This document shows positions 32,186 to 51,546 of a stretch of 64,000 bases of DNA, in pieces; within the stretch, counting starts at the first letter, position 1, and each line of letters begins with the position of its first letter. The stretch comes from an uncultured Planctomycetia bacterium. Its GTDB lineage: Bacteria; Omnitrophota; Gorgyraeia; 1-14-0-20-64-10. A program made the position numbers and the translations under genes. Where the stretch lies: the NCBI GenBank assembly GCA_964372395.1, contig CAYJQV010000003.1, forward strand, positions 11,124 through 75,123, given 5' to 3'. Under the pieces are notes generated by a model that did no database searches, was not told the origin of the DNA, and saw only the letters and a list, made by a program, of their open reading frames with translations.

Positions 32186-33844
32186 ATGAAGGCGAAACGT
32201 TTCCGCGAATTGCTGGCTCGGCCGGGCCCGGTGGTCCTGGCCGGCGCCCACGACGCCCTCAGCGCCAAGCTGGTGGAGCGGGCCGGCTTTGACGCCGTCT
32301 GGGTTTCCAGCTTCGGCCTCTCCGCCGCCCAGAGATCGATGCCGGACGCCAATGTCCTCACCATGACGGAGACCCTCGAGGCGGCCCGCGCGATCAACCA
32401 CGCGGTCGGGATCCCGGTCATCGCCGACTGCGACAACGGCTACGGCAACGCGATCAACGTCATGCGCACCGTCACCGAATTCTGCGAGGCGGGCATGGCC
32501 GGCATCTCCATCGAGGACAGCACCTTCCCGAAGCGCTGCTCGCTCTACCCCGGCCGGCACGAGCTGGTCTCGGTCGAGGAGATGAGCGGGCGGATCCGAG
32601 CCGCCAAGAGCGCCTGTCCCAATCCCGACTTCCTCCTCATCGCCCGGACCGAAGCGCTCATCGCCGGGCTGGGCCTGGAAGAGGCGTTCCAGCGGGCGCG
32701 GGCCTATCGCCAAGCCGGCGCCGACGCGCTGCTCGTCCATTCGAAGGCCCGCTCCGCCCAGGAGGTTCTCGCCTTTGCGCAGGGCTGGAAGGAGGGGCCG
32801 CCGCTGGTGGTGGTTCCCACCATGTTCCCCAACGCAAGCGTCCAGGAGCTCTCCCAGGCGGGGTTCAAGGTGATCATCTTCGCAAACCACGCCCTGCGCG
32901 CTGCCGTGGCCGCCATGCGCGAGCAGCTCGGCCGCCTGCGGAAGGAAGGGCGAGCGGAGGTCCTGGACGGCTCCATCGCCCCTCTCGATGAGGTGTACGA
33001 TCTGGTCGGGGTGGAGGCGCTCCACGCGCAGGAGGAGGCGTTCCTGCCCGCCCCGCGCGAGCCGGTCCGATCCGTGATCCTGGCCGCCGGCTTCGACCAG
33101 CAGCTCCTGCCCCTGGTCGAGGACCGCCCGAAGGCGATGCTGGAGATCAAGGGCCGCTCCATCCTGGAGCGGCAGATCGGCCTGCTCCAATCGGTCGGCA
33201 TCACCGACATCACCGTGGTGCGCGGCTACCAGGCGCAGGCGGTCCAGCTGCCTCAGGTCCGCTTCGTGGACAACCCCCGCTTCGCGGAGCAGGGGATTGC
33301 TGCATCCCTCTTCGCCGCAGAATCGGTTCTCACCGGACGGACCCTCATCCTCTATGGGGACATCCTGTTCGACCGGGCCATCCTCGAGAAGCTGCTCCAG
33401 TCCCAGCAGGAGGTGAGTCTCATCGTGGACCGGGCCTGGTTCGACCTGTACCGGACCGAGGGGCGCTCGCCCGAGGGGGCGGATCTGGTGCAGACCGCCG
33501 AGCCGCCGGTGCGCAGTCACCGTTTCCTCGCCTCCGAGCAGCCGCTCACCGTGCAGCGGATCGGCCAGCGGATCGACAAGCGGCAGGCGACCGCGGAGTT
33601 CGTGGGGCTGGCGCTTCTGTCTGCGAATGGAACCGATTGGCTGAAGGAGGCCTACCGGCAGGGATCCCAGGCCCCGGCCGACCAGCCGTACCACGAGGCG
33701 GCCTGCTTCGCGCAGGCCTCGCTCACCGACCTCTTCCAGGAGCTGATTGACCGCGGCCAGCCCGTGCAGGCGATCGAGACGTACAAGGGCTGGATCGAGG
33801 TGGACACCTTCGAGGATTACCGCCGGGCCTGGTCGAAGCTGTAG
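32186..33844 (+). CDS. pepM: phosphoenolpyruvate mutase fused to C-terminal LicC/PntC-type phosphonate cytidylyltransferase
   Basis: N-terminal ICL/PEPM fold (...AHDALSAKLVERAGFDAVWVSSFGLSAA...IADCDNGYGN...). The C-terminal roughly 240 aa has a nucleotidyltransferase fold (VILAAGFDQQLLPL...IETYKGWIEVDTFEDYRRA). I prefer the start MKAKRF at 32186; the ORF track begins at 32123. Confidence 0.85.
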   Translation: MKAKRFRELLARPGPVVLAGAHDALSAKLVERAGFDAVWVSSFGLSAAQRSMPDANVLTMTETLEAARAINHAVGIPVIADCDNGYGNAINVMRTVTEFCEAGMAGISIEDSTFPKRCSLYPGRHELVSVEEMSGRIRAAKSACPNPDFLLIARTEALIAGLGLEEAFQRARAYRQAGADALLVHSKARSAQEVLAFAQGWKEGPPLVVVPTMFPNASVQELSQAGFKVIIFANHALRAAVAAMREQLGRLRKEGRAEVLDGSIAPLDEVYDLVGVEALHAQEEAFLPAPREPVRSVILAAGFDQQLLPLVEDRPKAMLEIKGRSILERQIGLLQSVGITDITVVRGYQAQAVQLPQVRFVDNPRFAEQGIAASLFAAESVLTGRTLILYGDILFDRAILEKLLQSQQEVSLIVDRAWFDLYRTEGRSPEGADLVQTAEPPVRSHRFLASEQPLTVQRIGQRIDKRQATAEFVGLALLSANGTDWLKEAYRQGSQAPADQPYHEAACFAQASLTDLFQELIDRGQPVQAIETYKGWIEVDTFEDYRRAWSKL

Positions 33845-33864
33845 AGCCGGTTTTGAGGCCCGCT

Positions 33865-35226
33865 CTATAGCCGCGCTCTCTCCTTCCAGAAGTACCGAAT
33901 CCAGAAAACCTGACAGCCCACCGCCAGAGCGAAAAGGAAGGCAAGCTTCGCCTGCAGAAGCAGCACCGCAACAACCAGGAGAGAGAAGTTCTCGTGAGTC
34001 AGATTTCTCCTCAACCAGCCGATCCCGCGCCCAGCCCGTTCGCTCCTGACGCCCCGTGAGGGGTCTCCGAAAATCGTGGGGCCGAATCCCCTCACCTTGG
34101 CCCAGAGGGTGACGAAGAAGTCCAGCGCGATCCCAAGAGCCGCGACCACACCCAGCGCCGTCGCCCACCCGGGGCCTCCGGCCCGCTGAACGCCTGCTGC
34201 CAGCCCAAGCACCAGGGCCATCTGCACCACCATGTCCACAATCGGATCAAACCAGCCGCCCCATCGGGTGCTCTGCCCGCGCAGGCGGGCCACCTCCCCG
34301 TCCCAGTCGTCCGTGAGATAAAAGAGCTGAAACAAGATCGCCGCGGTCACGTCCCCGCGCCGCGTTCCCTCTGCCGCGCACGCGGCGGCCCCCAACCCCA
34401 GGAACAGCCCAAGGAACGTCCACTGATTCGGGGTAACCGGAAGACGGATCACCCACGGGAGGAACCATCCGGCGATCTGCCTGTTCCAGCAGGGAGCCGG
34501 CTTCCACTGGGGATAGATCTCTTTCCGCGCCTTCTCCTGGTCCGCCGGCGTGTCAATCTCCGTCCAGGCCATCCCGTCCATGCTCTCCCGGCCCACCGGC
34601 GTTTTCTCAAAAAGCTCGGGATAAACCTGCTCGTGCTCGATTTGGGTCATCCCCGCGCGAACCTTCTCCTCCAGGAGCTCCCTCAAGAGATGCGCTCCTT
34701 CCTCCGACAGCTTCAGGAATCCGACCGACTCCCCGTACCGATCCATCCGCTGACGGATCTCCTCGGGAGGGCGCTTGGTGATCTGCAGAACCCGCCCCTC
34801 GCGCCCGAACACCATCTGCTCTTCTCCGGTGTCCGGGGCCTTGGCATCCACCAGGAGGCAGCTGGCATGGCGGGATCCGACGAGGCGTTCGTAGGCGGCG
34901 GGAGAAACCAGGACATCGGTGTCCATGACGAGGACGGCCCGGTCCAAAAAAGCGCGGGCGCTCCAGAGGGAGAGGATCGCCCCCTCACGGTACCGCTCGT
35001 TTTCGATGACGGTGAGGCGCATCCCGCCCGCCCGGGCGCGGGCCTCCCGGACCACCTCCTCTTTTCCGAAGCCGACCACGATGACCGCCTCAGCGACCCC
35101 CGCCGAACGGAGACTCTCCAGGATCCGGGCGAGCAGGGTTTTACCGCCGACCTCGATCAGGCATTTGGGGCCGGCCCCGGGGCCCATCCGCCGTCCGACC
35201 CCGGCGGCCAGCAGGATCGCGGTCAC
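33865..35226 (-). CDS. bifunctional nucleotidyltransferase / CDP-alcohol phosphotransferase (IPCT/DIPPS-like architecture)
   Basis: N-terminal ILLAAGVGRRMG...PKCLIEVGGKTLL (sugar/alcohol-phosphate cytidylyltransferase fold). The C-terminal TM domain has the motif DDWDGEVAR-x8-GGWFDPIVD (D-x2-DG-x2-AR-x8-G-x3-D-x3-D). Confidence 0.8.
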   Translation of the reverse strand: MTAILLAAGVGRRMGPGAGPKCLIEVGGKTLLARILESLRSAGVAEAVIVVGFGKEEVVREARARAGGMRLTVIENERYREGAILSLWSARAFLDRAVLVMDTDVLVSPAAYERLVGSRHASCLLVDAKAPDTGEEQMVFGREGRVLQITKRPPEEIRQRMDRYGESVGFLKLSEEGAHLLRELLEEKVRAGMTQIEHEQVYPELFEKTPVGRESMDGMAWTEIDTPADQEKARKEIYPQWKPAPCWNRQIAGWFLPWVIRLPVTPNQWTFLGLFLGLGAAACAAEGTRRGDVTAAILFQLFYLTDDWDGEVARLRGQSTRWGGWFDPIVDMVVQMALVLGLAAGVQRAGGPGWATALGVVAALGIALDFFVTLWAKVRGFGPTIFGDPSRGVRSERAGRGIGWLRRNLTHENFSLLVVAVLLLQAKLAFLFALAVGCQVFWIRYFWKERARL

Positions 35227-35675
35227 GGCTCGATCTGGCCGGAGCGTGTGGGACCGATTGCTTCCCCCTGGGGAGGCCCCACGCAGAGCTCCTCCCCCTG
35301 GCAGGTGACGGGAAAGGTGGGGACGGCGGCGCCGGGCCGGGTGAGGCAGCGGCCGGTCTCCAGATCAAAGAGCCAGCCGTGAATCGGACAGCGCACCGCG
35401 GGCCGCTCCAGCCCGTGCGCCCCGGCATCGGGATCCGCAATCATCTCCACCCGGCCGCGGAAGAGCGGACCGCTCCGGTGGGGGCAGCGATTGCCGACGG
35501 CGTACAGGCGTCCCTGCACGTTGAACACCGCGGCCTCCTTGCCGTGCGCCGGGAGAACCCGCGACTCGCCGGGTGGAGGAGCGGTCCATCGGCCAGACTC
35601 CGGCTGCACTCCCTCCATTAAACCCCGGCGGCGACGCCTCGCCGGAAGGTGGGGATGCCCGGGGCGTACCCCCAT
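35223..35675 (-). CDS. Rieske [2Fe-2S] domain protein (ferredoxin-like, no catalytic domain)
   Basis: CPHRSGPL ... CPIHGWLF (CXH...CXXH) in a 150-aa protein. Confidence 0.7.
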   Translation of the reverse strand: MGVRPGHPHLPARRRRRGLMEGVQPESGRWTAPPPGESRVLPAHGKEAAVFNVQGRLYAVGNRCPHRSGPLFRGRVEMIADPDAGAHGLERPAVRCPIHGWLFDLETGRCLTRPGAAVPTFPVTCQGEELCVGPPQGEAIGPTRSGQIEP

Positions 35676-36622
35676 CGGCGAACCACCTCCAGCGGATCCG
35701 GCTGCCGCCAGGCCTGGTACTTCAGGAGCAGATCCACCCCGTCGCAGGTGCGCTCCAGGTTCGTCTCCATCCCCGGGAAATCGGGCCAGCCGTTCTCATT
35801 CTTGGCCTGCACGATCCATTCCATCGCCTTCTCCAGCGCCGGCCGGGCCCGCTCGTCGGCGCGCAGCATCCGGGAGATGAGCAGGCCGGAGCGGGTGCAG
35901 TCCATCGTGTGGTCCACATTCTTCTCGTCCCACGACCCGTCGGCATCCTGATGCGCGAGGATCCAGTTCAGCCCCTTCTCGCAGACCGGCCGCACCGGCA
36001 GGCCGTCCGGCAGAACCAGCGAGGCAATGACCGAATCCTGCACCAGATGCGCCGTCGTCTCCACACCCGACGGCTGAAAGACCGGGTCGTACCATCCCCC
36101 GTCCTCCGATTGGCCGTCCAGGATGAAGCGCAGGCCCTTCCGCCAGGGCTTCCGGACCGCCCCCCTCATCTTGTCCGTCCCGAGCGCCAGAACGACGTTG
36201 AAGAAGCTGACCGGATGGGACGTCGTGTCGAGATCCCCCCACTCCTTGTCCACCCACCGGCCGTCCGCCGCCTGGGAGGAAAGGAAGTAATCAATCGCCT
36301 TCCAGATCGAGCGCTCAATCTCCGGATTTTCAACGACGGCGTTGGCGCGGATCAGCATGAGCCCGCAGAAGGCGGACACCCAGGCCGCCGACTCCGCCTC
36401 GGTCGACTCCCTGCCCCACCCCCCGTCCGCATGCTGCGTCTGCACCAGCGCCAGATACTCCGCCAGCGATTCCCTCACCCTGCCCATGTGAAGGATCACC
36501 CGCATCGCGTGGGCCACCAGCTCCATGTCCTGCGGCCCCTGCGTCAGACTCCAGCGCGCATGCTCCCGCATGAGGAATGCGTGTTCCGCCTCCGCCAGAC
36601 TCCCCACCCGTTCCAGATCCAT
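35618..36622 (-). CDS. prenyltransferase/squalene-oxidase repeat (alpha/alpha-toroid) protein
   Basis: Repeated QxxDGxW-type motifs (TQHADGGWGRE, SQAADGRWVD, GQSEDGGWYD, HQDADGSWDE). I place the start at MDLERVGS, about 36620-36622, preceded by a GGGGAG RBS. Confidence 0.7.
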   Translation of the reverse strand: MDLERVGSLAEAEHAFLMREHARWSLTQGPQDMELVAHAMRVILHMGRVRESLAEYLALVQTQHADGGWGRESTEAESAAWVSAFCGLMLIRANAVVENPEIERSIWKAIDYFLSSQAADGRWVDKEWGDLDTTSHPVSFFNVVLALGTDKMRGAVRKPWRKGLRFILDGQSEDGGWYDPVFQPSGVETTAHLVQDSVIASLVLPDGLPVRPVCEKGLNWILAHQDADGSWDEKNVDHTMDCTRSGLLISRMLRADERARPALEKAMEWIVQAKNENGWPDFPGMETNLERTCDGVDLLLKYQAWRQPDPLEVVRRWGYAPGIPTFRRGVAAGV

Positions 36623-36636
36623 CGCTCCCCTCCCTT

Positions 36637-37296
36637 TTATACGTACCCGAGCCGGATAAAACGTCCCAGCCCATCCGCCAACGACTGGCCGGCCTTCCGG
36701 ACCGCGCCCAGGAAGAGCCGCATCTGGCTCCAGCGCGAAGGAACGGCCAGCATCCGGAGCCCCTGCCGCCACGAGCCCACCGCCAGCCGCACCTCCATCG
36801 GATCCAGGATCGAACGAATCGCCACCCACGCCACACCGGCCTCCGTCGCCGCCCCAGCCACCGCCGATGTCTCCAGGTCGGCCGCGATCGCCCCGAAACG
36901 GACCCCGCCCTGCTGCTTGAGCGCCGGATCTTGAAGGGTCTTCGGAACCGTCAGGAACGGCCCCACCGAGGCCATGCCGTTGAGCCCGAAGGCCAGGCTC
37001 GGTTTCCTTCGAAGACCGGTCGATTCCTCGATCACCTCCGAGGCCATCACCAGGTCGCCCACCTGAAATCCCGGCCTCAAGCCGCCCGAGAAGCCGGTGC
37101 TCACGACGAGCCGGCAGCGCTGCCGCTGCAGCTCATCCCGGACCGCCGCGCCGGCCCGCTCCCCCATCCCGGTCACCAGACAGCGCACCCCCGCCGGCTC
37201 CGCCTGCCGGAAGCGGGCAAGCTCCTGCGGGGTGGCCGCCACCACCAGAATCGTCCCGCCGGATCGCCGCCCTTCATCCTCCATTGACGTACCCAT
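36637..37296 (-). CDS. hpnG: hopanoid-associated phosphorylase/nucleosidase (PNP-UDP family)
   Basis: MTA/SAH-nucleosidase-like fold (ILVVAATPQE...LVVSTGFSGGL...GDLVMASEV) in hopanoid gene context. Confidence 0.7.
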   Translation of the reverse strand: MGTSMEDEGRRSGGTILVVAATPQELARFRQAEPAGVRCLVTGMGERAGAAVRDELQRQRCRLVVSTGFSGGLRPGFQVGDLVMASEVIEESTGLRRKPSLAFGLNGMASVGPFLTVPKTLQDPALKQQGGVRFGAIAADLETSAVAGAATEAGVAWVAIRSILDPMEVRLAVGSWRQGLRMLAVPSRWSQMRLFLGAVRKAGQSLADGLGRFIRLGYV

Positions 37297-38305
37297 TGGC
37301 GCGGAACCATCCCACCGCCTTGTCCAACGCCTGCTCCACCGGCCCCTGGGGCAGATTCAGCTCCCGCACCGCCTTCGCCGAATCGAAGAACATCTTTTTC
37401 CTCGACATGCGAACCGCGTCCCATGGGATCCTGGGCGGCCTTCCCGTCCAGGCGCTCGCGGCCGTGCTCACCGCGGCCAGGCCCAGGGCCGCCGCGTGCG
37501 GGAGGCGGACGCGGGGGACAGGACGGCCGCTCACCCGGGACAGCATCTCCAGGATCTCCCTCAAGCTGAGATTCCTTGCCCCAAGGATGTAACCCTCTCC
37601 CTGCCGGCCCTTCTCCATCGCCAGGCAATGGCCCTCCGCCACATCCTCCACGTCGATGAGATTCAGCCCCGTGTCGACATAGGCCGGCATCCGCCCGGTC
37701 AGGAAGTCCACGATCATCTGACCGGTCGGCGTCGGCTTCACGTCACGGGAGCCCACCGGCGTCGACGGATGCACGATCACCACCGGGAAGCCCTGGGCTG
37801 CCGCCCCCCGCACCTCCCTCTCCGCGAGGAACTTCGAGCGCTTGTAATGGCCGATCATCTGCTCCAGCGAGACCGGCGTCTCCTCATCGGCCGGGCTCCC
37901 GTCCGGGGCGAATCCAAGCGTTCCGACGGTGGAGGTGTAAACCATCCGCTCGACCCCCTCCTGCCGGCAGGCGGCGATCAGACTCCGGGTTCCCCCGACG
38001 TTGGCGCCGTAAAGCTCCCGCGAATCCCGCGCCCAGAGGCGGTAGTCGGCCGCCACATGGTAGATCCTCCGGCAGCCGGCGACCGCGCGGCGCAGGGAGT
38101 CCGGATCGTTCAGATCCCCCTGCACGACCTCCGCCTCCAGGCCCTCCAGGTTCCGGCGCGGGCTGCTGGGGCGCACCAGGACCCGCACGCGCTCGCCCCT
38201 CTCCACCAGCCGGCGCGCGACGTGGCTGCCGACAAAGCCGGTCGCCCCCGTCACCAGCGTCAGGCTCACTGTATCCACCCTGCGGCGGGGTACCCGGCTT
38301 GGCAT
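37274..38305 (-). CDS. hpnA: hopanoid-associated NAD-dependent sugar epimerase/dehydratase family protein
   Basis: Rossmann motif LVTGATGFVGSHV, catalytic YKRSK, in hopanoid gene context. Confidence 0.7.
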   Translation of the reverse strand: MPSRVPRRRVDTVSLTLVTGATGFVGSHVARRLVERGERVRVLVRPSSPRRNLEGLEAEVVQGDLNDPDSLRRAVAGCRRIYHVAADYRLWARDSRELYGANVGGTRSLIAACRQEGVERMVYTSTVGTLGFAPDGSPADEETPVSLEQMIGHYKRSKFLAEREVRGAAAQGFPVVIVHPSTPVGSRDVKPTPTGQMIVDFLTGRMPAYVDTGLNLIDVEDVAEGHCLAMEKGRQGEGYILGARNLSLREILEMLSRVSGRPVPRVRLPHAAALGLAAVSTAASAWTGRPPRIPWDAVRMSRKKMFFDSAKAVRELNLPQGPVEQALDKAVGWFRANGYVNGG

Positions 38306-38444
38306 CGCTCGGCCGCCCCGGCGAGGCGGCCTTCGCTCTCTCCTCGACCGCGCACAAAACCGTGCCGCGCGGCCTGCGGACGTGCCGCGCCGGGCAACCC
38401 CGCCGCCGGACGCATCCGGTCAGCCTGTCCGTGCACGCGTCGGT

Positions 38445-39431
38445 TCACCGCACCCTCGCGAATTCCGCCAGGCCCAGCCCCACCCAGGCCAGCTCTCTCG
38501 CCCGGCGCACGAGCGCCAGCGCCAGGCCGGGCGCCGCATGGATCCCCAGCGCACCGCACACCACCAGCCCGATCCCCTCGCTCGCCCCCAGCGAAGCAGG
38601 AATGAGAAACGCACCGCTCCTGAAGAGGACCCAGAGCGCCTCGATCGAGAAGGCGGTCGACAGGGAAACAGGGATTCCGAGGAACCACAGGATGATCGCC
38701 ACCTCCAGCGCCCCCGCCACCCATCCCAGGAAATGGAAGCCGAGGGACCAGGCCACCAGGCCCGGCGAACGCCGGTAGAAGGAGACGACCGCCTCATCCC
38801 AGCCCCGTGCGCCGGAAAGCACCCGGCCGGACCAGCCCGGGACCACGCGCGCGAGGAAAGAGGCGGCCCAACCGAACGGGCGGAGGAACTGCACCATCAG
38901 GAACAGCCCCAGCAGGATCGCCAGCACCGGAAGAGCCCAACCGGCCCAGCGGATGAGCTCGGCGGAGGTCGGCTGAGTGGCCAGGGTCACACCCAACCCC
39001 ACCAGGATGAAGAGGAGCATGCTGACGGAAAAGGTGGTCTTCGCCACAACCACAGAGGCCATCCCATCCGCCATCGAGATCCCGTAGCGCTCCGCCAGCA
39101 GGGCCGCCTTCACCGGCTCACCCCCGATCCAGGCGGTGGGGGTAACGTAGTTGATCGCCTCGCCCGCCAGCCGGGCGCGGAACAGGCGGAGCCACGAGAC
39201 GCCTCCCCCTGATCCCACCCGAAGGGCATATTTCCAGCCGAGCGTGTCCAATCCGAAGATCACCACGTAGAAAACCAGCACCCAGAAGAACCGCCAGCGA
39301 AGGGCGCTGAGGAGATCCCAGACGGCCGTCAGATCCGAGATCCAAATCAGCCAGAGGAACAGCCCTGCCCCAAGCGCAAGGGCGATCCAGCGAAACCAAA
39401 TCCATCCTTGTGACCGTGAATTCGGATCCAC
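38445..39431 (-). CDS. hpnL: hopanoid-associated flippase-like membrane protein (UPF0104 / lysyl-PG synthase TM-region family)
   Basis: A 328-aa polytopic protein matching the LPG-synthase TM-region family, in a position typical of hpnL. Confidence 0.65.
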   Translation of the reverse strand: MDPNSRSQGWIWFRWIALALGAGLFLWLIWISDLTAVWDLLSALRWRFFWVLVFYVVIFGLDTLGWKYALRVGSGGGVSWLRLFRARLAGEAINYVTPTAWIGGEPVKAALLAERYGISMADGMASVVVAKTTFSVSMLLFILVGLGVTLATQPTSAELIRWAGWALPVLAILLGLFLMVQFLRPFGWAASFLARVVPGWSGRVLSGARGWDEAVVSFYRRSPGLVAWSLGFHFLGWVAGALEVAIILWFLGIPVSLSTAFSIEALWVLFRSGAFLIPASLGASEGIGLVVCGALGIHAAPGLALALVRRARELAWVGLGLAEFARVR

Positions 39432-39440: not shown

Positions 39441-40085
39441 TTAAGAAATCGGCCGACGCAGGCGCGCCGCCATCCTCAGATCTGCCGGGATCCAGAAGAG
39501 GAAGGTGCCGACGAACGCCCCCCACAGGATCCAGCCCAGAACCCCCAACACGGCCGCCGCCAGAACGATCAACGAGAAGTCGCTGCGCAGATTCATCTTC
39601 ATCGCGTCGAGCGGATCCGGCGATGGCCCGCGCGGCGGATCGGGGTGGAGCAACGCCTCCCTGCCGCGCGCCCACACCTGTGACACCAGATAGGAGACGG
39701 TCGAGGCCACCACCCCCAGGGAGGTCGCCGCCCCCAGCCAGACCCAGCTCGGATGACCCAGATAGCTCCAGAGCCCCCACCCGAGGCTGAAGAAGAATCC
39801 GGCATGCACCACGCAGCCCACCCCGGTATCGAGCCAGCTGCCGAATCCGCTGCTGGTCCGTGTCGCCCGGGCCACGGCCCCATCCGCCTCGTCCAGGATG
39901 TTCGCCAGGACGAAGCAGAGGATCCCGAGAAGCAGGGATCCGGCGTTGCCCTCGATGAGCAGGGGGCAGCCGGTCAAACCGGCCAGAAGCGAGAGCGCGG
40001 TCACCTGGTTCGCCGAGATCCCCAGCCGGATGCACAGGGGGACCAGTCGAAGCCCCAGGAACCGGTTGAACGGCAGAAGGGACAT
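39441..40085 (-). CDS. CDP-alcohol phosphatidyltransferase-family membrane protein
   Basis: DEADGAVAR-x8-G-x3-D motif (LDEADGAVARATRTSSGFGSWLDTG) with TM helices; 214 aa. Confidence 0.75.
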   Translation of the reverse strand: MSLLPFNRFLGLRLVPLCIRLGISANQVTALSLLAGLTGCPLLIEGNAGSLLLGILCFVLANILDEADGAVARATRTSSGFGSWLDTGVGCVVHAGFFFSLGWGLWSYLGHPSWVWLGAATSLGVVASTVSYLVSQVWARGREALLHPDPPRGPSPDPLDAMKMNLRSDFSLIVLAAAVLGVLGWILWGAFVGTFLFWIPADLRMAARLRRPIS

Positions 40086-43571: not shown

Positions 43572-45596
43572 CTAGTCCCTCAGCCGCTGCCTGGCTTCGC
43601 TCAGGGCCAGGAGCGGAAAGATGACCCGGTACAGGTGGTATTTCAGATAAAAGACGCGCGGAAAACCGGTCCCGGTGAACGGCTCCTCGGCCCAGTCCCC
43701 CTCTTCCCGCTGGGTCCGGAGGAGAAACTCCAGCCCCTTCCGGAAGGCCGGTTCCCCGACCCACCCCAGACTCATCAGCGCCATCAGCGCCCATGCGGTC
43801 TGGGATGCAGTGGAAACTCCTCGGCCCTTCTCGGCAGGATCGTCGTAAGACCGGCAGCTCTCCCCCCATCCCCCGTCCGGATTCTGGTGAGTGACGAGCC
43901 AGCGGCCGGCCTGCTGATACCGGATGCCCTCCATCGGCTCTCCCGAAAGCAGGAGCCCCCGCAGGGCCAGCCAGCTCCCATACGTGTAGTTGACCCCCCA
44001 TCGCCCGAACCAGGTGCCGTCCGCCTCCTGCCGCTCCCGCAGGAAACGGACGCCCCGCCGGACCGCAGGATGACCCTTCGGCAGGCCCGCCGCATGCGCC
44101 AGCTCCAGCATCCGCCCGGTGATGTCCGCCGCCGAGGGATCCAGCATCGCGTTGTGGTCGGCGAACGGGAAATGGGTGAGCGCCTGGCGGTCGTTGTCCT
44201 TGTCGAACGAGCTCCAGCCCCCGTCCCGATTCTGCATGCTCAAGACCCACTCCAGCCCCCGCCGGAAAGCCCCCTCGAAATCCACCCGCTGTGCCGTCGC
44301 GGCACCGTGCGCCGTGGTGCCGGGCCGCGCCGCTCCGCCGCGCATCTTCTTGAGCGCCAGGAACGCCAGCAGGACCTGGCCGGTGTCATCCACGTCCGGG
44401 TAGAATGGATTCCTGAACTCGAACGCCCAACCGGCCGGCTTTCCCCCGGGGTTCTTGACCACCCAGTCGCCCCAGATCCGGATCTCCTGGCCGAGCAGCC
44501 ACTCCACCGCCCGCTCCAACGCCGCGTCCAAACCCGGTACCAGGTCCCGTTCGGTACCTGGTACCGATTGGGCCGCCTGCGCGAGCGCGTAGGCCGCCAG
44601 CGCCGTGTCCCAGACCGGAGAAAAACAGGGCTGCACCTTCAGATCGTCCCCCTCCTCCAGATCCAGCCGCTCCAGCTCCCGCAGCGACCGCTCGAAGAGG
44701 GGATCCCCGTCGGAGTAACCCAGGGATTTCAGCGCGAAGACGGCGTTCAGCATCGCCGGGAAGATCGCCCCCAGCCCGTCCGTCTCCATGAGGCGCTCGG
44801 TGATCCATCGGTCGGCGCGCCGCAGCGCCAACTCCCGCAGCGGCTTCCAGCCGGAGCGCTCGCAGAGCTTGAGCAGGCGGTTCGCTCCGAGGAAGAAGAA
44901 GCGCCATCCGGCCCCTCCCTTCTGCAGATTGGTGGCCCGCGCCCGCTTGCGCGCCGGGTCACGCCACAGCTCCTCCAGCGAGAACGGCGCCCGGACCCAC
45001 GCCGGCCGCCCGGCGTACACCACCGAAAGGGGGACCAGGATCGTGCGGGACCAGCAGGAGATCTCGTAGATGTTGAACGGGAACCAGCGCGGCAGGAGGA
45101 TGAGCTCCGGCGGCAGGGCTGGAACCTGATCCCAGGGATACAGGCCGAAGAGGGCCAGGTACACCTTCTCAAAGCTGTTCACCCGCTCCAGGCCGCCCAC
45201 CCGCAGGATCACCGCCCGTGCCCGCTGCAGGATCTCCTCCTGCGGCCCGTGCCCGGCCAGCCGGAGCGCCACGTACGCCTTGACCGTCACGTTGAGCTCC
45301 GCCGGGCCGCCCTGGTAGATGGGCCACCCGCCGTCGGGAAGCTGATTCTTCAGGATCGTCCGGACGAGCCGCGCCTGGCGGAGCGGATCCACGCGGCCCA
45401 GCAGGTGCATGAGCTTGACGGTGTCCGACTCGAGGCTCGTGTCCGCCTCCAGCTCCCCGCACCAGTACCCCTCCGGCGCCTGCCGGCCCAGGAGGAACCG
45501 GCCCGCCCGCTCGATCGCATCGTCGATCGAGCCGGCCGGGGTCCGGCCCGGTTCAACGAGCACCGCCGGGCCGGATCCGACGGGGCTAATGGACAT
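43572..45596 (-). CDS. shc: squalene-hopene cyclase
   Basis: 674 aa with multiple QW motifs ([48 protein letters not shown]) and the catalytic DxDDT-type motif DVDDTG. Confidence 0.95.
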
Positions 45597-47499
45597 AGAC
45601 CGTTCCCCGCTCCAGCAGCTCCCGTGCGGCCAGCTCGATCGCCTCCGGCGTGAGGCGCGCCTCCTTCAGGAGGATCTCCCGCTTGCCGTGTTCGAAGAAC
45701 CGGTCCGGGATCCCCATGACCCGCATCTTGAGGCCGTTCCGCATCCGCTCCAGCTCCACCATGAGCCGGGATCCAAATCCGCCGATCTGCGCCGCCTCTT
45801 CCACGGTGAGGATCGCCTGGTGCCCGGTGACCAGTGACACGCAGAGCTCCATGTCCAGGGGCTTCACGAACCGGGCGTTGACCACCGTCGTTGAGATCCC
45901 CCTCTGCTCCAGGAGCCGCGCCGCCTCCATCGCCGGATACACCATGCTGCCGAGGGCCACGATCGCCAGGTCGGAGCCGCGCCTCAGCACCTCCGCCCTG
46001 CCCAGCCGGATCGGCTCCGGCTGCGGCGGCATCTCCAGCTCCAGCTCCGGATGGAACCGCAGGGCTCCCCCGCGCGGATACCGCAGCGCGATCGGCCCCC
46101 GATGCCTGCATGCAAACTCCAGCATCGCCTCCAGCTCATCCGGGTCCTTCGGCGCCATGAAGACCAGCCGCGGCAGCGCCGACAGATACGCCACATCGAA
46201 AACGCCGTGGTGCGTGATCCCGTCGTCCCCCACCAACCCCGCCCGGTCCATGCTGAAGATGACCGGCAGGTTCTGGATGCAGACGTCGTGGATCACCTGG
46301 TCGTAGCCCCGCTGCAGGAAGGTGGAGTAGACCGCCGCCACCGGCTTCAAGCCGCCGCGCGCCAGCCCGGCCGCAAAGGCCACCGCGTGCTGCTCGCACA
46401 TCCCCACGTCGTAGAACCGCTCCGGCATCTGCTGGGCGTATTCCACCAGCCCGGTCCCGTCCGGCATCGCAGCGGTGATCGCGATGAGCCGCGGCTCCTC
46501 CCTCGCCAGCCGGATCATCGCCCTGCCGAACCGCTGGGTGAACGTCTCCGCCGAGGGCTTCTTCAGGAACTCGCCCGTCGCCGGATCGAACGGGGTGACG
46601 CCGTGGTACTTCCACTGCTCCTTCTCCGCCAGCGGATACCCCCTGCCCTTCGTGGTGCGCACGTGGAGCAGCCTCGGTCCCGGCAGCTCCTTGACGTGGC
46701 GGAGGGTTTTGACAAGAAGCTCGACGTTGTGGCCGTCGATCGGCCCGAAGTAGCGGAAGCCCAGCTCCTCAAAGAGGATGCCCGGAACGAGCAGGTTCTT
46801 CAGCGATTCCTCCAGCCGCTTCGCCGCCCGCAGGATCCGGTAGCCGAACCGGGGAATCCGGCACATCACCCGCTCCACCTCCCGTCGCACCCGGTTGTAG
46901 AGGGGATCGGTGATGATCCGGTTGAAGCAATGGGTCAGGGCGCCGATGGCGGGGGCGATCGCCATATTGTTGTCGTTCAGGATCACGAGGAAATCGCTCT
47001 TCACATGACCGGCGTGGTTCAGGCCCTCCAGCGCCATTCCCTCGGGCAGCGACCCGTCCCCGATCACCGCCACCACCTTGTAACGCTCCCCCTGGTGATC
47101 CCGCGCCCGCGCCAGCCCCAGCCCGGTTGAGATCGAGGTCCCGCCGTGCCCGATGGTGAACAGATCGTGGGGGCTCTCCTCCCGGTGCGGGAAACCGGAG
47201 ATCCCTCCCCATTGCCTTAAGGTCCCGAACCGCTCGCGCCGGCCGGTCAGGATCTTGTGGGCGTAGGCCTGGTAGCCCACGTCCCAGACCAGCTTGTCCT
47301 CCGGCGTGTTGAAGACGTAATGGAGGGCCACCACCAGATCCACCGCCCCCAGCGGCCCGCCGAAATGGCCGCCGGTCTTGGAAACCTTGTCGATGATGAG
47401 CTGCCGGATCTCCTGCGCGACGTTCGGCAGGGCGCAGAGGGGCAGACCCCTCAGATCCGACGGCTGGTTGATCCTCTCCAGAAGGCTCTCGCTCATCAC
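45586..47499 (-). CDS. dxs: 1-deoxy-D-xylulose-5-phosphate synthase
   Basis: 637 aa; TPP-binding GDG...N, transketolase-like PYR and C-terminal domains; Dxs-specific N-terminus (...GGHFGGPLGAVDLVVALHYVF...). Confidence 0.95.
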   Translation of the reverse strand: MMSESLLERINQPSDLRGLPLCALPNVAQEIRQLIIDKVSKTGGHFGGPLGAVDLVVALHYVFNTPEDKLVWDVGYQAYAHKILTGRRERFGTLRQWGGISGFPHREESPHDLFTIGHGGTSISTGLGLARARDHQGERYKVVAVIGDGSLPEGMALEGLNHAGHVKSDFLVILNDNNMAIAPAIGALTHCFNRIITDPLYNRVRREVERVMCRIPRFGYRILRAAKRLEESLKNLLVPGILFEELGFRYFGPIDGHNVELLVKTLRHVKELPGPRLLHVRTTKGRGYPLAEKEQWKYHGVTPFDPATGEFLKKPSAETFTQRFGRAMIRLAREEPRLIAITAAMPDGTGLVEYAQQMPERFYDVGMCEQHAVAFAAGLARGGLKPVAAVYSTFLQRGYDQVIHDVCIQNLPVIFSMDRAGLVGDDGITHHGVFDVAYLSALPRLVFMAPKDPDELEAMLEFACRHRGPIALRYPRGGALRFHPELELEMPPQPEPIRLGRAEVLRRGSDLAIVALGSMVYPAMEAARLLEQRGISTTVVNARFVKPLDMELCVSLVTGHQAILTVEEAAQIGGFGSRLMVELERMRNGLKMRVMGIPDRFFEHGKREILLKEARLTPEAIELAARELLERGTVYVH

Positions 47500-47505: not shown

Positions 47506-48369
47506 CTAGGATTCCCGCGTCAGGATGAACCGGGCCAGCGCCCGCAGCGGCTCCGCCTTCTTCCCCAGCGGCCGCAGATCCCGGATCGCCGACTCGGTGA
47601 GGAGTGCCGCCTTTCTCTGGACCTTGGCCTCGCCCCAGAGGGGCACCAGCCCGTCGCTGTCCAGCAGATCATCCACCATCTGAAAGACCAGGCCCACCTT
47701 CCGCCCGTACCGGCAGAGGGCCTGGTACGCCGAAGGCCTGGCCCGGCCGAGCAGCACCCCCACCCGAACCGACGCCGCGATGAGTGCGCCGGTCTTCCGG
47801 GTGTGGATCTCTTCGATCCCCCGCCCGGTCGGCCGGCCCCTGCCGGTGCGCCCGTTCCTGCCGTTCGCGCGCCCGTCGCCCGCGGTGACATCCGAGACCT
47901 GGCCGCCGATCATTCCCCGGGTCCCGATCGCCTCGGCGACCTCCCGGGCGACCTGCAGATGGGTGGTGGAATCATGGTTGGCGCGCGTCAGCATCTCGAA
48001 GGCCCGGGTGAGCAGGGCATCCCCTGTCAGGACCCCGATCGCTTCACCGAACTTCTTGTGGCAGGAGGGCTTGCCCCGACGGAAATCGTCGTCATCCATC
48101 GCCGGCAGATCGTCGTGGACCAGGGAGTAGGCATGGATCATCTCCAGCGCGCAGGCGGCGTCAAGCGCCGAGCCGACGCGGCCGCCGGCCGCCTCGCAGG
48201 CGGCCAGGGCCAGGATCGGCCGGATCCGCTTGCCCTGCCCGAGCACGCTGTACCGCATGGCCCGGTGGATGACCTCCGGCTGCCTTGCCGGTCCCGGGAG
48301 GGCCCTCTCCAGCGCCCGGTTGACAAGGGATTGACGCTGTTCCAGGTAGGACTTGAGGTTCATGGACAA
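47506..48369 (-). CDS. ispA: (2E,6E)-farnesyl diphosphate synthase / polyprenyl synthetase
   Basis: First and second aspartate-rich motifs LVHDDLPAMDDDDFRRG and FQMVDDLLD. Confidence 0.9.
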   Translation of the reverse strand: MSMNLKSYLEQRQSLVNRALERALPGPARQPEVIHRAMRYSVLGQGKRIRPILALAACEAAGGRVGSALDAACALEMIHAYSLVHDDLPAMDDDDFRRGKPSCHKKFGEAIGVLTGDALLTRAFEMLTRANHDSTTHLQVAREVAEAIGTRGMIGGQVSDVTAGDGRANGRNGRTGRGRPTGRGIEEIHTRKTGALIAASVRVGVLLGRARPSAYQALCRYGRKVGLVFQMVDDLLDSDGLVPLWGEAKVQRKAALLTESAIRDLRPLGKKAEPLRALARFILTRES

Positions 48370-48378: not shown

Positions 48379-49767
48379 TTACCGACCGTCCGTTGAGGAG
48401 GCAAGCCATTTCAGGGCGGCCGCGCTCGCCTTCTCGCCGCTCACCACAGCCGATTCCACGGTTGCCGGCAGGCCGGTCGCAGTCCAATCCCCGGCCAGGA
48501 AGAGCCCCTCAAGCCCTGTTTCCGCGCCGGGCCGCAGCCGCTCCAAGCCCACGGTCAACGAAACGGTCGCCTCCCGCTCCCGGACCACCTGCGCCCGCAC
48601 AAGCCCGGCCCCGGCGGCCGCCGGGAAACAGCGGCGCAGGTCCTCCAGCGCCGATTGGATCAGCGCCTCGTTGGAGAGCCCCACCTCCTCATGCGCCGCG
48701 CTCAGGATGAGCGAGACGTAGCTGGCCTGTTCACGGGAGGCGCGCAGGATGCCCGCCTTGTTGAACAGCCACTGGAACCGCGTGCCGAGCAGCGCCACAA
48801 ACGCCTCCTCGCAGACCGGCCGGTCGAGCCAGAGATTCACGGAGACAATCGGCGAGGAATGGAATCGGGCCAGGATCCCGCGCAATCCCGCGGCTTCTCC
48901 TGCACCCTCGGGAAGAAGCCGCAGAAGCACCGATGGCGGAACCGCGCTCACCACCGCTGCCGCCTCCACGCGGGTCCCATCCGGCAAGGTGACACCGGTC
49001 ACCCGGCCCCGTTCAAAGAGAAGCCCCGCGGCAGGCCGGTTCAGGAGAACCCGTCCTCCCCGGCCCTCGATTGTCCGCCGGGCCTGCTCCGTGTAGAGGT
49101 CGCTCAAGCCCACCGACGCCATCCCCAATCGCGAGCAGCCGCGTGGCCGGAACATCATCGTGCCCAGCACCTGCTGCAGCCCGGCCACCGATGCGCGGGA
49201 GGGATCCTCGTTCAGCACCGCCACCGCGAGAGGATTCCAGAAGCGGGTCCGGCTCCGGCTGCCCTGCCCCATCCGCTCCAGCCACTCCTCCACCGTCTCA
49301 CCCCGGCCCGACGTCCCTGAGGCCCCTTCGGTACGGCGTACCGAACTCCGCCGTACCGAATTCGAGAGGGCCCACCAGCCCAACCGCTCCCGCCATCCGA
49401 ATCCCGGCAGGCGGGAGATCCCCAGGAAAAGGTGCCAGGGCGCGGGCACCGGTGGGCAGTCCAGAACCGTCGTCCGCCCCCCCGGCTCGACGAACCCGAC
49501 CCGCAGGTGATCCTGAAAGAGGAGCCGGTCGCGGGTCCCCAGCCGCTCCAGAAAGGCGAGCGTCCTGTCGTAGCCGGCCAGGAAGAGATGCTGGCCGTTG
49601 TCCACCACTTCCCCGCTCGCCGGATCGGTGAAGGAGCGGGCCCTGCCTCCCAATCCCACCCGGCTTTCCAGAACGGTGACCGGCACACCCGCGTCGGCAA
49701 GCGCGACCGCCGCCCGCAGGCCGGCGAAGCCGCCTCCGATTACGACGACCGCCTTGTCAGCAGGCAC
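48379..49767 (-). CDS. hpnE: hydroxysqualene dehydroxylase (FAD-dependent amine-oxidase family)
   Basis: FAD Rossmann VVVIGGGFAGLRAA with an amine-oxidase fold, positioned after hpnC-hpnD. Confidence 0.85.
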   Translation of the reverse strand: MPADKAVVVIGGGFAGLRAAVALADAGVPVTVLESRVGLGGRARSFTDPASGEVVDNGQHLFLAGYDRTLAFLERLGTRDRLLFQDHLRVGFVEPGGRTTVLDCPPVPAPWHLFLGISRLPGFGWRERLGWWALSNSVRRSSVRRTEGASGTSGRGETVEEWLERMGQGSRSRTRFWNPLAVAVLNEDPSRASVAGLQQVLGTMMFRPRGCSRLGMASVGLSDLYTEQARRTIEGRGGRVLLNRPAAGLLFERGRVTGVTLPDGTRVEAAAVVSAVPPSVLLRLLPEGAGEAAGLRGILARFHSSPIVSVNLWLDRPVCEEAFVALLGTRFQWLFNKAGILRASREQASYVSLILSAAHEEVGLSNEALIQSALEDLRRCFPAAAGAGLVRAQVVREREATVSLTVGLERLRPGAETGLEGLFLAGDWTATGLPATVESAVVSGEKASAAALKWLASSTDGR

Positions 49768-50621
49768 TGCAGCCCGGCCCAGAGCTGGCGCGACCGGGGA
49801 ATCTGAATCCGGTGGCTGAAGACATCGTACCCGACCGCCTCAATCCGCTTCAGGATGCGGGAATAGACCGCACCCATCACCCGAGCCGGGACGAGCCGCC
49901 GCCCTTCAGCCGCCTCCCCCATCGCCTGCTCCGCCTCCTGGAAAAAGGAGCGGGCGCGCGCGCACTCAAACTCCGCCAGCCGCCGGAACGATCCCGACAT
50001 CCGGCCCTTCGCCAGATCCTCCTCCCGCACGCCGAACCGGTCCAGATCCTCCCCGGGGAGATAAACCCTGCCCTGCTCGGCATCCGCCTTCACGTCCCGC
50101 AGGATGTTCGTCAGCTGCAGCGCGATCCCGAGTGAAACCGCATACCGGTCCGAGGCGGGGTGCCGGCAGCCGAACACCCGCACGGAGATGAGGCCCACGA
50201 CCGAGGCCACATGCTCGCAGTAGACCCTCAGCTCCCCGAAGGTCCGGTACCGGCGCCGGTGCAGATCCATCTCCACCCCCGTGACCAGCTTCTCGAGGTA
50301 GGCGGCCGGGATCCGGAACCGCTCCCGGACCGGCTCCAGCGCCACCAGGATCGGATGCGTCGGCATCCCCTGGCCTGCAGCCGCCAGCTCCCGCCGCCAC
50401 CGGTCCAGCTCCCTCTGCGCCTCCTGGGGCTGCGCGTTGTCCCGGTCCACCGCATCGTCCACCGCCCGGCAGAAGGCGTACACCGCCTCCATCGCCTGTC
50501 TCCGCGCAGCCGGCAGGACCCGGAAGCTCAGGGAGAAATGGCTCCCCGCGCGGCCGGTCAGCCAGCGGCAGTAACGATGGGCGGCCTGCCGCCCCAGCCC
50601 GCCGTCAAGGGAGGAGCGCAC
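49740..50621 (-). CDS. hpnD: presqualene diphosphate synthase (squalene/phytoene synthase family)
   Basis: Squalene/phytoene synthase fold (...AVYAFCRAVDDAVD..., ...GIALQLTNILRDVKAD...). It is the second of two tandem family members, as in hpnCDE. Confidence 0.85.
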   Translation of the reverse strand: MRSSLDGGLGRQAAHRYCRWLTGRAGSHFSLSFRVLPAARRQAMEAVYAFCRAVDDAVDRDNAQPQEAQRELDRWRRELAAAGQGMPTHPILVALEPVRERFRIPAAYLEKLVTGVEMDLHRRRYRTFGELRVYCEHVASVVGLISVRVFGCRHPASDRYAVSLGIALQLTNILRDVKADAEQGRVYLPGEDLDRFGVREEDLAKGRMSGSFRRLAEFECARARSFFQEAEQAMGEAAEGRRLVPARVMGAVYSRILKRIEAVGYDVFSHRIQIPRSRQLWAGLQCLLTRRSS

Positions 50622-51546
50622 GGCCCAGAAGCCCCATCTTGCAGAGTTTCGACAGAACAGGCCGGCCCCTGAAGACGTCGTACCGGAGCCCCTCGATCCG
50701 GTCGAGGATCGCCCGGCCGCCCAGCAGGGTGAGCTTCAGCTCCAATCGGAGCGGCCCGGACACTGCCCGGATGAGCGGCTCCCCTTCGTCGAAGAGCCGC
50801 CGCGCCCGCCCGACCAGATCCGCCATGAGGGCCCGGAACGACGGGGTCAGACCCCGTGGGGTCAGACCCCGTGGGGTCAGACCCCGCGGGGTCAGACCCC
50901 AATAGGTTTTAAGCTCCTCTTCGGAGACGCCGTGCTCCCGCATCAGCGAATGCGGAACGTACAGCATCCCCCTCGCCCAGTCGATCCGCAGATCCTGCCA
51001 GTGGTTGGTGAGCTGCAGCGCCGTGCAGATCCGGTCGGACTGCTCGTGCAGCGCCGGCTCCCCGATCCCGAACGCCAGCAGCACCAGCCGGCCGACCGGA
51101 TTCGCCGAGTACCGGCAATAGGTCAGAAGCTCCTCCCAGTCGGCGTACCGCTTCTTCGTGACGTCCATCCTGAAGGCGGTGAGCAGGTCGTCGAGCAGCT
51201 GGACCGGCAGGCCGCGCCGCCGCACCGTGTCGCCGATCGCCAGGAAGATCGGGTGGCCGTTCAGAGCGGCGCCTGCCGGCCGTGCCGCCTGCCCCGCTCC
51301 GTCCCCGCACGCCGCCCGCAGCGCCGCCCGCCAACGCTCCAACAGCTCCAGCGACCGGCCCCGGTATTTCAGCTCATCCGCGAAATCATCCGCCGACCTC
51401 GCAAAGGCGTAGATCGCGGCGATGTGCGGGCGGACAGCCCGGGGCAGCAGCCACGACGCCACAGGGAAATTCTCGTAGTGGCCATAGGTGATCCACTCGC
51501 AATAGCGGTACGCCTGAGCCAGCTGCGGTTCCATGACCTGAACCAT
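50605..51546 (-). CDS. hpnC: hydroxysqualene synthase (squalene/phytoene synthase family) carrying an in-frame 20-aa GLTPR x4 repeat insertion
   Basis: ...AAIYAFARSADDFADE..., ...CTALQLTNHWQDLRID.... The internal WGLTPRGLTPRGLTPRGLTP is encoded by four 15-bp family-B repeat units. Confidence 0.85.
   Translation of the reverse strand: MVQVMEPQLAQAYRYCEWITYGHYENFPVASWLLPRAVRPHIAAIYAFARSADDFADELKYRGRSLELLERWRAALRAACGDGAGQAARPAGAALNGHPIFLAIGDTVRRRGLPVQLLDDLLTAFRMDVTKKRYADWEELLTYCRYSANPVGRLVLLAFGIGEPALHEQSDRICTALQLTNHWQDLRIDWARGMLYVPHSLMREHGVSEEELKTYWGLTPRGLTPRGLTPRGLTPSFRALMADLVGRARRLFDEGEPLIRAVSGPLRLELKLTLLGGRAILDRIEGLRYDVFRGRPVLSKLCKMGLLGRALLP
50843..50913. repeat. 15-bp dyad repeat family B, locus 3 (four direct units, tail AATAGGTTTTAAG), inside hpnC coding sequence
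   Basis: GGGGTCAGACCCCGT x2, GGGGTCAGACCCCGC, GGGGTCAGACCCC. Confidence 0.8.

Follow-up and report, generated by a model that had tools for sequence, protein, structure and literature searches.

Does a bacterium that makes hopanoids also cap them with a phosphonate head group? The question is raised by a stretch of 64,000 nucleotides (hereafter the window) from an uncultured Planctomycetia bacterium, contig CAYJQV010000003.1 of assembly GCA_964372395.1, in which a compact cluster of about 20 genes (window 30898-51546) interleaves hopanoid genes with genes of the type that make and transfer 2-aminoethylphosphonate (AEP). A phosphonate-decorated hopanoid had been proposed in an original prediction made from the sequence alone. 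We found that the locus is a real and conserved hybrid, in which a hopanoid operon is joined to an AEP-type head-group module of the kind activated with cytidine monophosphate (CMP); the module would be mobile and would have been inserted into the operon. The cluster probably makes a phosphorus head group, activates it and transfers it to a membrane lipid. That this lipid is an extended hopanoid is the reading we tentatively favour from gene content and order, with slightly less than even confidence.

Layout of the cluster and its conservation

The gene identities were obtained by Pfam and NCBIfam profile searches scored against curated cut-offs. All genes named in the original prediction were recovered at or near the positions it had assigned, and three were added: ispH (30898-32124), a single-barrel protein related to squalene-hopene cyclase (SHC; 35618-36622) and a small Rieske protein (35223-35618). 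The guanine plus cytosine content of the window is 65-69%, and its distribution over codon positions outlines a single long run of minus-strand genes from 51546 down to 33865. The genes are given below in the order in which this run is read, followed by the plus-strand gene that converges on its last member and by ispH, which ends the cluster.

50605-51546, minus strand: hpnC (TIGR03464, 300 bits against a cut-off of 250)
49740-50621, minus strand: hpnD (TIGR03465, 302 bits against 279)
48379-49767, minus strand: hpnE (TIGR03467, 410 bits against 283)
47506-48369, minus strand: ispA-type polyprenyl (farnesyl) diphosphate synthase (PF00348, 153 bits; NF045485, 262 bits)
45586-47499, minus strand: dxs (TIGR00204, 784 bits)
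43572-45596, minus strand: shc, squalene-hopene cyclase (TIGR01507, 661 bits against 431)
42502-43563, minus strand: hpnH, adenosylhopane synthase of the radical SAM type (TIGR03470, 521 bits against 225)
41954-42506, minus strand: phosphonopyruvate-decarboxylase-like alpha part, TPP_enzyme_N (TIGR03297, 114 bits)
41394-41957, minus strand: phosphonopyruvate-decarboxylase-like beta part, TPP_enzyme_C (TIGR03297, 185 bits)
40088-41404, minus strand: PhnW/AepZ-type AEP transaminase-like protein (TIGR03301, 347 bits against 361)
39441-40085, minus strand: small cytidine diphosphate (CDP)-alcohol phosphotransferase paralogue, 214 residues (PF01066, 31 bits)
38445-39431, minus strand: HpnL-like membrane protein with LPG_synthase_TM, a flippase-like domain (PF03706, 115 bits; TIGR03476, 161 bits against 196)
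37274-38305, minus strand: HpnA, a hopanoid-associated short-chain dehydrogenase/reductase or "sugar epimerase" (TIGR03466, 496 bits against 368)
36637-37296, minus strand: PNP_UDP_1 nucleosidase/phosphorylase, HpnG-like (TIGR03468, 74 bits against 187; futalosine hydrolase model, 62 bits)
35618-36622, minus strand: SHC-related single (alpha/alpha)6 barrel ("toroid"), 334 residues, with faint squalene-cyclase repeats
35223-35618, minus strand: small Rieske [2Fe-2S] protein (PF00355, 52 bits; CPH...CPIH in the translation)
33865-35226, minus strand: NTP_transf_3 + CDP-OH_P_transf fusion, a cytidylyltransferase joined to a CDP-alcohol transferase (PF12804, 66 bits; PF01066, 49 bits; NF041135, 120 bits)
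32174-33844, plus strand: PepM-like (Cys-type) + NTP_transf_3 nucleotidyltransferase fusion (PF13714, 214 bits; TIGR02320, 260 bits)
30898-32124, minus strand: ispH, 4-hydroxy-3-methylbut-2-enyl diphosphate reductase (NF009911, 536 bits against 440)

The locus is a hopanoid cluster by the scores of shc, hpnH and hpnC/D/E, each of which exceeded its curated cut-off. By homology, Dxs, IspH, IspA, HpnC/D/E and SHC are predicted to make hopene, and HpnH and the HpnG-like protein of the PNP family would extend it towards ribosylhopane or bacteriohopanetetrol (BHT). The hpnG and hpnL genes of the original prediction are present, but both proteins fall below their family cut-offs; the HpnG-like protein belongs to the PNP_UDP_1 fold family without reaching TIGR03468, and the HpnL-like protein belongs to PF03706 without reaching TIGR03476. 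The place of the HpnG-like gene next to hpnA is kept in all related loci. None of the domains typical of HpnI/J/K/O/P/R/N was seen in the window open reading frames (ORFs) scanned, in agreement with the predicted absence of the hpn genes for head-group tailoring. The canonical hpn clusters of Zymomonas, Rhodopseudomonas and Burkholderia likewise hold hpnC-D-E, shc, hpnH, hpnG-like, hpnA and hpnL-like genes and genes of the MEP pathway (dxs, ispH) in one locus. The window differs from them in being without hpnI/J/K/O/P/R/N, in the low family scores of its HpnG-like and HpnL-like proteins, and in having seven extra interleaved genes (two for the decarboxylase, one for the transaminase, two for CDP-alcohol transferases, and the barrel and Rieske genes) in addition to the PepM-like gene.

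The tight, operon-like spacing that had been predicted is real. ATGA overlaps join hpnH to the decarboxylase alpha gene and the alpha gene to the beta gene, and 2 nucleotides separate the transaminase gene from that of the small transferase. The barrel and Rieske genes overlap at TAATG and the Rieske and fusion genes at GTGA, so that the Rieske gene is translationally coupled at both ends. Spacers of 2-14 nucleotides also occur, and stop and start codons overlap or almost touch through most of the run. The sole sizeable gap in the stretch from hpnH to the fusion, 139 nucleotides between the HpnL-like gene and hpnA (38306-38444), may hold an internal promoter. The ispH and PepM-like genes are divergent, with about 50 nucleotides between their likely starts (32124-32174). 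The predicted coordinates were broadly right; for the transaminase ORF a start at 41404 instead of 41200 is possible, and for the PepM-like gene 32174 is a more probable start than 32186, being backed by the homologue P0037 (97% identical, 556 aa). Homologue alignments of IspH begin at about residue 104 of a long ORF, which places its start at the ATG at 32124.

Synteny of pepM-like with hpn genes in relatives, which the original prediction had proposed as a check, was seen in many of them. The loci compared were contigs with homologues of the small transferase (L001-L004), species-representative genomes with a relative of it (L005-L013) and the loci of the closest homologues of the PepM-like fusion (L014-L016). 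The relatives are metagenome-assembled genomes (MAGs) labelled "uncultured Planctomycetia" or "Candidatus Omnitrophica/Omnitrophota". Except in L012, the gene order of L001-L013 was the same from hpnD to the fusion and ispH as far as the contigs reach, and protein identities to the window ranged from 38 to 98% across the L001-L013 loci. The whole order, including the interleaving, recurred at protein-level identities of 40-85% in L001-L011 and L013-L016, across most of which the small transferase is merely 38-57% identical. In L014-L016, the PepM-like fusion is 58-74% identical and occupies the same position in the same cluster. The small transferase was considered as a marker specific to hopanoid clusters, which holds partly: in L012 (Binatia) it stands with an HpnL-like gene alone, and in L015 and L016 the gene at its position resembles the transferase domain of the fusion.

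The accidental abutting of two unrelated clusters would fit the opposite strand of the pepM-like gene and its absence from this position in two related lineages (L001-L003 and L013). There the fusion gene runs straight into ispH, so the pepM-like gene looks like an insertion or a loss. However, the order is kept across many divergent MAGs and recurs independently in other phyla, and the genes of the two pathways alternate on one strand with overlapping codons. The conserved synteny led us to reject chance adjacency, and an accidental juxtaposition has next to no probability.

The rest of the window scanned contains housekeeping genes, including those for NADH dehydrogenase, aconitase-family proteins, the Suf system, CysK/ThiF-type proteins, CdaA and MgtE, among others. 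A SufB/SufD-family gene (18156-20801, plus strand, 881 aa) carries an intein, with Intein_splicing and LAGLIDADG endonuclease domains, within the SUFBD core. Another intein (Intein_splicing and LAGLIDADG) was seen near a related cluster, in a radical SAM gene at L015:1-2307 on the minus strand.

The PepM-like protein and the predicted head-group pathway

The protein that would form the carbon-phosphorus (C-P) bond had been named a phosphoenolpyruvate (PEP) mutase, and it fails the diagnostic motif of that family. In the numbering of the Mytilus enzyme (E114-D115-K116...N122-S123), the motif is EDKX5NS; the window protein reads EDSTFPKRCS. In all 120 of the 120 closest homologues, every one an NTP_transf_3 fusion, the Asn122 position is Cys, and Lys116 is replaced by Asn, Ala or Ser, giving the clade motif ED[S/A/N]xFPK[R/K/Q]CS. 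By alignment, this Cys coincides with what we take to be the catalytic Cys of the lyase loop K[KR]CGH. The TIGR02320 score of 259.8 bits is below the cut-off of 319.55, the phosphonopyruvate hydrolase model gave 251 bits, and NCBI names the relatives "isocitrate lyase/PEP mutase family" and nothing more specific. On these sequence features the Cys-type PepM-like proteins are a distinct clade. EDKX5NS is the acceptance criterion for Ppm in published inventories (PMC6697681, PMC8942020), so motif-filtered surveys would have rejected the clade.

Such features would suit an enzyme that is not a PEP mutase and a head group that is not AEP. In that case, the changes from Asn122 to Cys and from Lys116 to Ser, Ala or Asn would mark a reaction new to the PEP mutase/isocitrate lyase superfamily. 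The substrate of the decarboxylase and transaminase would be another 3-substituted pyruvate, such as sulfopyruvate or phosphohydroxypyruvate, with taurine or phosphoethanolamine as the product, and the PepM-like protein would have the barrel and Rieske proteins as partners. However, all the other catalytic and metal residues of PEP mutase are kept in the window protein (W44, S46, D58, D85, D87, E114, K120, S123, R159, and H190). At each of these ten positions, no fewer than 113 of the 120 closest homologues share the residue; W44, D58, D85, E114, K120, S123, R159, and H190 are essentially invariant, and S46 and D87 are rarely substituted. Moreover, the nearest solved proteins are true PEP mutases, with 285 bits for 5unc and 194 for the Mytilus enzyme; phosphonopyruvate hydrolase scored 243 bits and the lyases of the superfamily about 130-145.

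The gene context bears on the same choice. A metagenome scan with alignment of these fusions gave 80 loci, which split into the Cys-type clade (46-57% identity) and a canonical EDK..NS clade (35-43%). Exactly the same neighbours accompany both: a split thiamine diphosphate-dependent decarboxylase, which as a rule directly adjoins the fusion, a transaminase like PhnW, a second nucleotidyltransferase, a CDP-alcohol transferase, and an LPG_synthase_TM protein. Because these neighbours are shared, we argue that the pathway fed by the Cys-type enzyme has stayed the same, and the simplest reading of the context is that it does the job of canonical PepM. In most Cys-type loci, the decarboxylase directly adjoins the PepM-like gene, and an enzyme of the phosphonopyruvate-consuming type is present in the window cluster as well.

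NCBIfam does not separate the split decarboxylase of the window from sulfopyruvate decarboxylase, and these near-equal scores suit a non-mutase pathway. The beta part scored 185 bits with TIGR03297 and 183 with the sulfopyruvate decarboxylase beta model, and the alpha part 114 bits with TIGR03297 and 107 with TIGR03845, all below the cut-offs. The best solved match of the beta part is 9iz3_B (123 bits), described as a "putative phosphonopyruvate decarboxylase beta subunit" of a split enzyme, and the PepM-like and PhnW genes around it favour Ppd over ComDE. The transaminase matched solved AEP transaminases with 201-212 bits (1m32, 212; 9kk8, 204) versus at most 131 for other class-V enzymes; its TIGR03301 score lies 14 bits under the cut-off of 361, and we counted it as a member of the AEP transaminases. 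These matches, together with the same gene pair beside canonical PepM elsewhere, led us to reject a sulfopyruvate decarboxylase of the coenzyme-M type, and the original assignment of both enzymes to phosphonate metabolism is supported, for the decarboxylase as the probable one. In addition, a sulfonate is excluded by the activation with a nucleotide and the CDP-alcohol transfer that follows it, since this sequence of steps calls for phosphorus in the head group. On the side of a non-mutase enzyme there also stand the clusters of L001-L003 and L013, which retain the decarboxylase, the transaminase and both transferases although pepM is missing from them, and the runs with no decarboxylase nearby that are described below. 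Taken together, we regard a reaction other than that of PEP mutase as improbable.

The step after AEP would be activation. The nucleotidyltransferase consensus is GXG(T/S)RX4-8PK, and replacement of Arg15 or Lys25 by Ala leaves PntC with less than 10% of its activity (PMC6697681). The domain fused to the PepM-like protein, which the original prediction had taken for PntC, reads GFDQQ-X8-PK; the second Gly and the Arg are gone, as in all Cys-type relatives. The N-terminal domain of the 33865-35226 fusion reads GVGRR-X6-PK, which fits the consensus save at the T/S position, and this fusion matched the PntC structure 6pd1 with 46.5 bits versus 27.9 for the PepM-fused domain. In its C-terminal domain, the CDP-alcohol motif DxxDGxxARx8GxxxDxxxD is complete (DDWDGEVARx8GxxxDxxxD; DDWDGEVARLRGQSTRWGGWFDPIVD). 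Given GVGRR, the better PntC match and the complete motif, CMP-AEP formation and transfer are assigned to this fusion, and the PepM-fused domain was rejected as the CMP-AEP-forming PntC. A similar architecture is seen in IPCT/DIPPS (4mnd, 54.6 bits), in which an N-terminal cytidylyltransferase is followed by a C-terminal CDP-alcohol phosphotransferase whose motif is complete; this enzyme makes a CDP-alcohol and uses it directly. The similarity is weak (about 55 bits), and the substrate of IPCT/DIPPS is inositol phosphate, whereas the neighbours in the window point to AEP and a lipid-alcohol acceptor.

In the small transferase (39441-40085), the motif reads DEADGAVARx8GxxxDxxxG (DEADGAVARATRTSSGFGSWLDTGVG), the fourth Asp being replaced by Gly. 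The window lineage shares this Gly with L001-L003, L005, L006, L008, and L014; the Asp is kept in L004, L007, L009-L013, L015, and L016. Homologues of the small transferase number just 36 among 5.8 billion proteins. Divergent pairs of CDP-alcohol transferases, one complete and one with Gly at the fourth Asp, also occur beside canonical PepM (L073:14059-15284; L082 near 12361 and 13278; L087 near 14203 and 15029). They mirror the pair in the window and hint at a heteromeric transferase, which is conceivable.

The barrel and Rieske proteins belong to the system and are its least explained part. The barrel is 70-82% identical within the cluster type, far above the small transferase. It has four to five QxxDGGW-type repeats, and its AlphaFold2 model is an (alpha/alpha)6 barrel (predicted local distance difference test score 94); monodomain class II terpene cyclases (8paj; MstE, 6sbb) and the domains of SHC have the same fold and the same type of repeats. 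The DxDD motif of class II terpene cyclases is not present in the barrel, where P-S-G-V-E-T-T-A aligns with P-D-V-D-D-T-A of SHC and Glu188 occupies the position of the SHC general acid. The invariant polar residues are D130, D132, H136, E188, H192, D196, D237, H238, D241, E290, R291, C293, D294, and D297. In the contexts seen, the pair stands with a Cys-type PepM or with no PepM, and never with canonical PepM. On three multi-megabase contigs (L020:8239-11366, L021:5425-8546, and L022:8227-11328), the run consists of the Cys-type PepM-like/NTP fusion, the barrel and the Rieske protein, and the decarboxylase, transaminase, CDP-alcohol transferase and hopanoid genes are absent within 10 kb of it. 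A role of the pair as hopanoid enzymes is therefore doubtful.

We propose the following pathway. The Cys-type PepM-like domain would convert PEP to phosphonopyruvate, from which the decarboxylase and then the transaminase would produce AEP. The N-terminal domain of the 33865-35226 fusion, and not the degenerate domain fused to the PepM-like protein, would make CMP-AEP. The transferase domain of the same fusion would then release CMP and attach the aminoethylphosphonyl group to one of the hydroxyls on the side chain of the extended hopanoid. The small paralogue is possibly a second transferase or a partner subunit, and the HpnL-like flippase-type protein may move the product across the membrane.

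The module with and without hopanoid genes

The acceptor is the part of this pathway on which the wider distribution of the genes bears most directly. The phosphonate genes, the CDP-alcohol transferase and the HpnL-like gene constitute an independent module, most often seen without hopanoid genes. In a Binatia locus (L018) and a Chlamydiae MAG (L019), it consists of the PepM-like fusion, decarboxylase, transaminase, NTP, CDP-OH and LPG_synthase_TM genes, and hopanoid genes were not found within 10 kb. HpnL-like genes, and often HpnA-like genes too, travel with the phosphonate module rather than with shc, even where hopanoid genes are missing. Since the module mostly lacks nearby hopanoid genes, a hopanoid acceptor is suggested by the window and not required by the module itself.

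The main rival to a hopanoid acceptor is an ordinary phosphonolipid, in which AEP would be attached to diacylglycerol or another non-hopanoid lipid and merely be co-expressed with hopanoids for remodelling of the same membrane. Characterised CDP-aminoalcohol phosphotransferases use diacylglycerol as the acceptor, and the module stands alone not only in L018 and L019 but in most metagenome loci of both PepM clades. The characterised relatives of the LPG_synthase_TM protein act on glycerophospholipids (PMC12324291). Against this, the module has joined hopanoid or isoprenoid genes several times, and these joinings cover at least three arrangements and two PepM clades. In the window its genes are woven in between hpnH and hpnA/hpnG, with codons that overlap, which goes beyond adjacency. 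An Omnitrophota MAG adds a further point (L011:6321-9801): hpnJ, hpnK and hpnI, each scoring higher than its curated cut-off (hpnJ, 717 bits against 578), lie between two copies of the small transferase inside the phosphonate block. HpnI/J/K build glucosamine and cyclitol-ether head groups on BHT, and their presence marks the block as a region for hopanoid head-group tailoring. We consider an ordinary phosphonolipid somewhat less likely than a hopanoid acceptor, and the most serious of the alternatives.

On at least three separate occasions the module has become part of a hopanoid cluster. In L017, a Cys-type module in a different arrangement stands beside genes for SHC, a PNP-family protein, HpnA and a CruF-like hydratase, and there is no transaminase. 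Two zinc alcohol dehydrogenases lie upstream of the Cys-type PepM and decarboxylase genes (L017:7741-9846, plus strand), suggesting that 2-hydroxyethylphosphonate, not AEP, is formed in that variant. In L073 and L078, a canonical EDK..NS PepM is part of a hopanoid cluster of the proteobacterial type. Its order is GT2, HpnD, SHC, HpnH, ispH, HpnA, NTP, PhyH dioxygenase, PepM-NTP, fused decarboxylase, PhnW, two CDP-alcohol transferases, MMPL/HpnN-like transporter, HpnL, and MlaC/HpnM-like protein.

Some of these loci carry further enzymes. The PhyH-family 2-oxoglutarate dioxygenase that adjoins the canonical PepM fusion at L073:9035-9793 (minus strand) might hydroxylate the phosphonate head group. 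Isoprenoid genes accompany the PepM-like fusion in two more loci, with a polyprenyl synthase, HpnA, a CDP-OH gene and a CruF-like hydratase in L055 and, by similarity matches, a polyprenyl synthase and HpnA in L029. The CruF-like (Caroten_synth) isoprenoid hydratase beside HpnA (L017:15760-16788, minus strand; L055:16394-17197, plus strand) could create a tertiary alcohol on an isoprenoid, which could then be the acceptor.

The proposal of a phosphonate-decorated hopanoid thus gains from the enzyme types, the hpn synteny and the hpnI/J/K genes of L011, and loses from the PepM motif, the degenerate PntC-like domain, the lineages without pepM and the stand-alone modules. Several points weigh against it. 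Besides the altered PepM motif with its low TIGR02320 score, the clusters that keep the other phosphonate genes without pepM, and the Gly at the fourth Asp of the small transferase, SHC and HpnH were found in just 2 of about 25 metagenome loci of at least 12 kb (L073 and L078, counting both PepM clades). The usual acceptor of the module is probably not a hopanoid, unless its carriers encode hopanoid genes elsewhere in the genome. The barrel and Rieske genes alone with the PepM-like fusion in L020-L022 are not explained by the favoured model, and no chemical description of a phosphonate hopanoid was found in the literature searched. We still favour the hopanoid as acceptor because of the repeated joining to hopanoid and isoprenoid genes, the interleaving and the overlapping codons. 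A broader proposal is that extended hopanoids or other isoprenoid alcohols receive an AEP cap in several bacterial lineages through a CMP-AEP/CDP-alcohol-transferase module, and that in the window lineage the C-P bond is formed by the large Cys122 clade working with the barrel and Rieske proteins; in this full form we hold it to be possible but rather doubtful.

Relation to known systems and implications

The AEP tailoring pathway (Ppm-Ppd-AEPT with PntC; Rice et al. 2019, PMC6697681) draws on the same enzyme families, including a Ppm fused to PF12804. The logic is also common to both, from C-P formation through decarboxylation, transamination and CMP activation to an acceptor in the cell envelope, as read here from the genes. 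The window differs in its Cys-type motif, in a PF12804 domain without GXG(T/S)R, in a second cytidylyltransferase, a canonical one, fused to a CDP-alcohol phosphotransferase, and in its setting among hopanoid genes. No characterised bacterial CMP-AEP:lipid transferase was found in the literature searched.

The original claim of novelty has to be qualified, since a linkage of phosphonate and terpene genes had already been remarked. In Roseomonas and Belnapia, the linkage of shc and pepM was noted in one line as an "undiscovered terpene-phosphonate" (PMC8776678), and a "phosphonate-terpene" hybrid of Nitrosococcus was mentioned in passing (PMC7285500; gene cluster family 731 in PMC8942020). These notes are single sentences without gene-level analysis. 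The published hybrids place pepM and AEP genes beside squalene synthase or hopene cyclase genes, and L073 and L078 are of this proteobacterial type. They passed the EDKX5NS filter and so have canonical PepM, whereas the window lineage is of the Cys type; its relatives are MAGs of the Planctomycetes-Verrucomicrobia-Chlamydiae type labelled Omnitrophota or Planctomycetia, and they have the barrel and Rieske pair in addition. Several gene-level features were not encountered in the literature searched: the Cys-type clade, its degenerate nucleotidyltransferase domain, the fusion resembling IPCT/DIPPS, the modular character of the system with HpnL and HpnA, and the barrel/Rieske pair.

A synteny study from 2025 described the function of HpnL as unclear and did not mention phosphonates (PMC12324291). 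The travelling of HpnL and HpnA with the phosphonate/CDP-alcohol module, away from shc, is a new and testable clue to two functionally unassigned genes associated with hopanoids. If the Cys-type enzymes are active mutases, the inventories (PMC6697681, PMC8942020) miss many producers in soil and groundwater, and the environmental capacity for phosphonates is underestimated. The hypothesis of a phosphonate-capped hopanoid is directly testable, since cultured Nitrosococcus and Roseomonas/Belnapia reportedly carry the hybrid cluster with the canonical motif. Hopanoids are among the major membrane lipids of bacteria and also serve as geological biomarkers, whose sources are traced by their polar head groups. 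If the hypothesis is true, a phosphonate-capped hopanoid would be a new class of head group and a new C-P membrane lipid, a possible biomarker, and a link between hopanoids and the C-P cycle.

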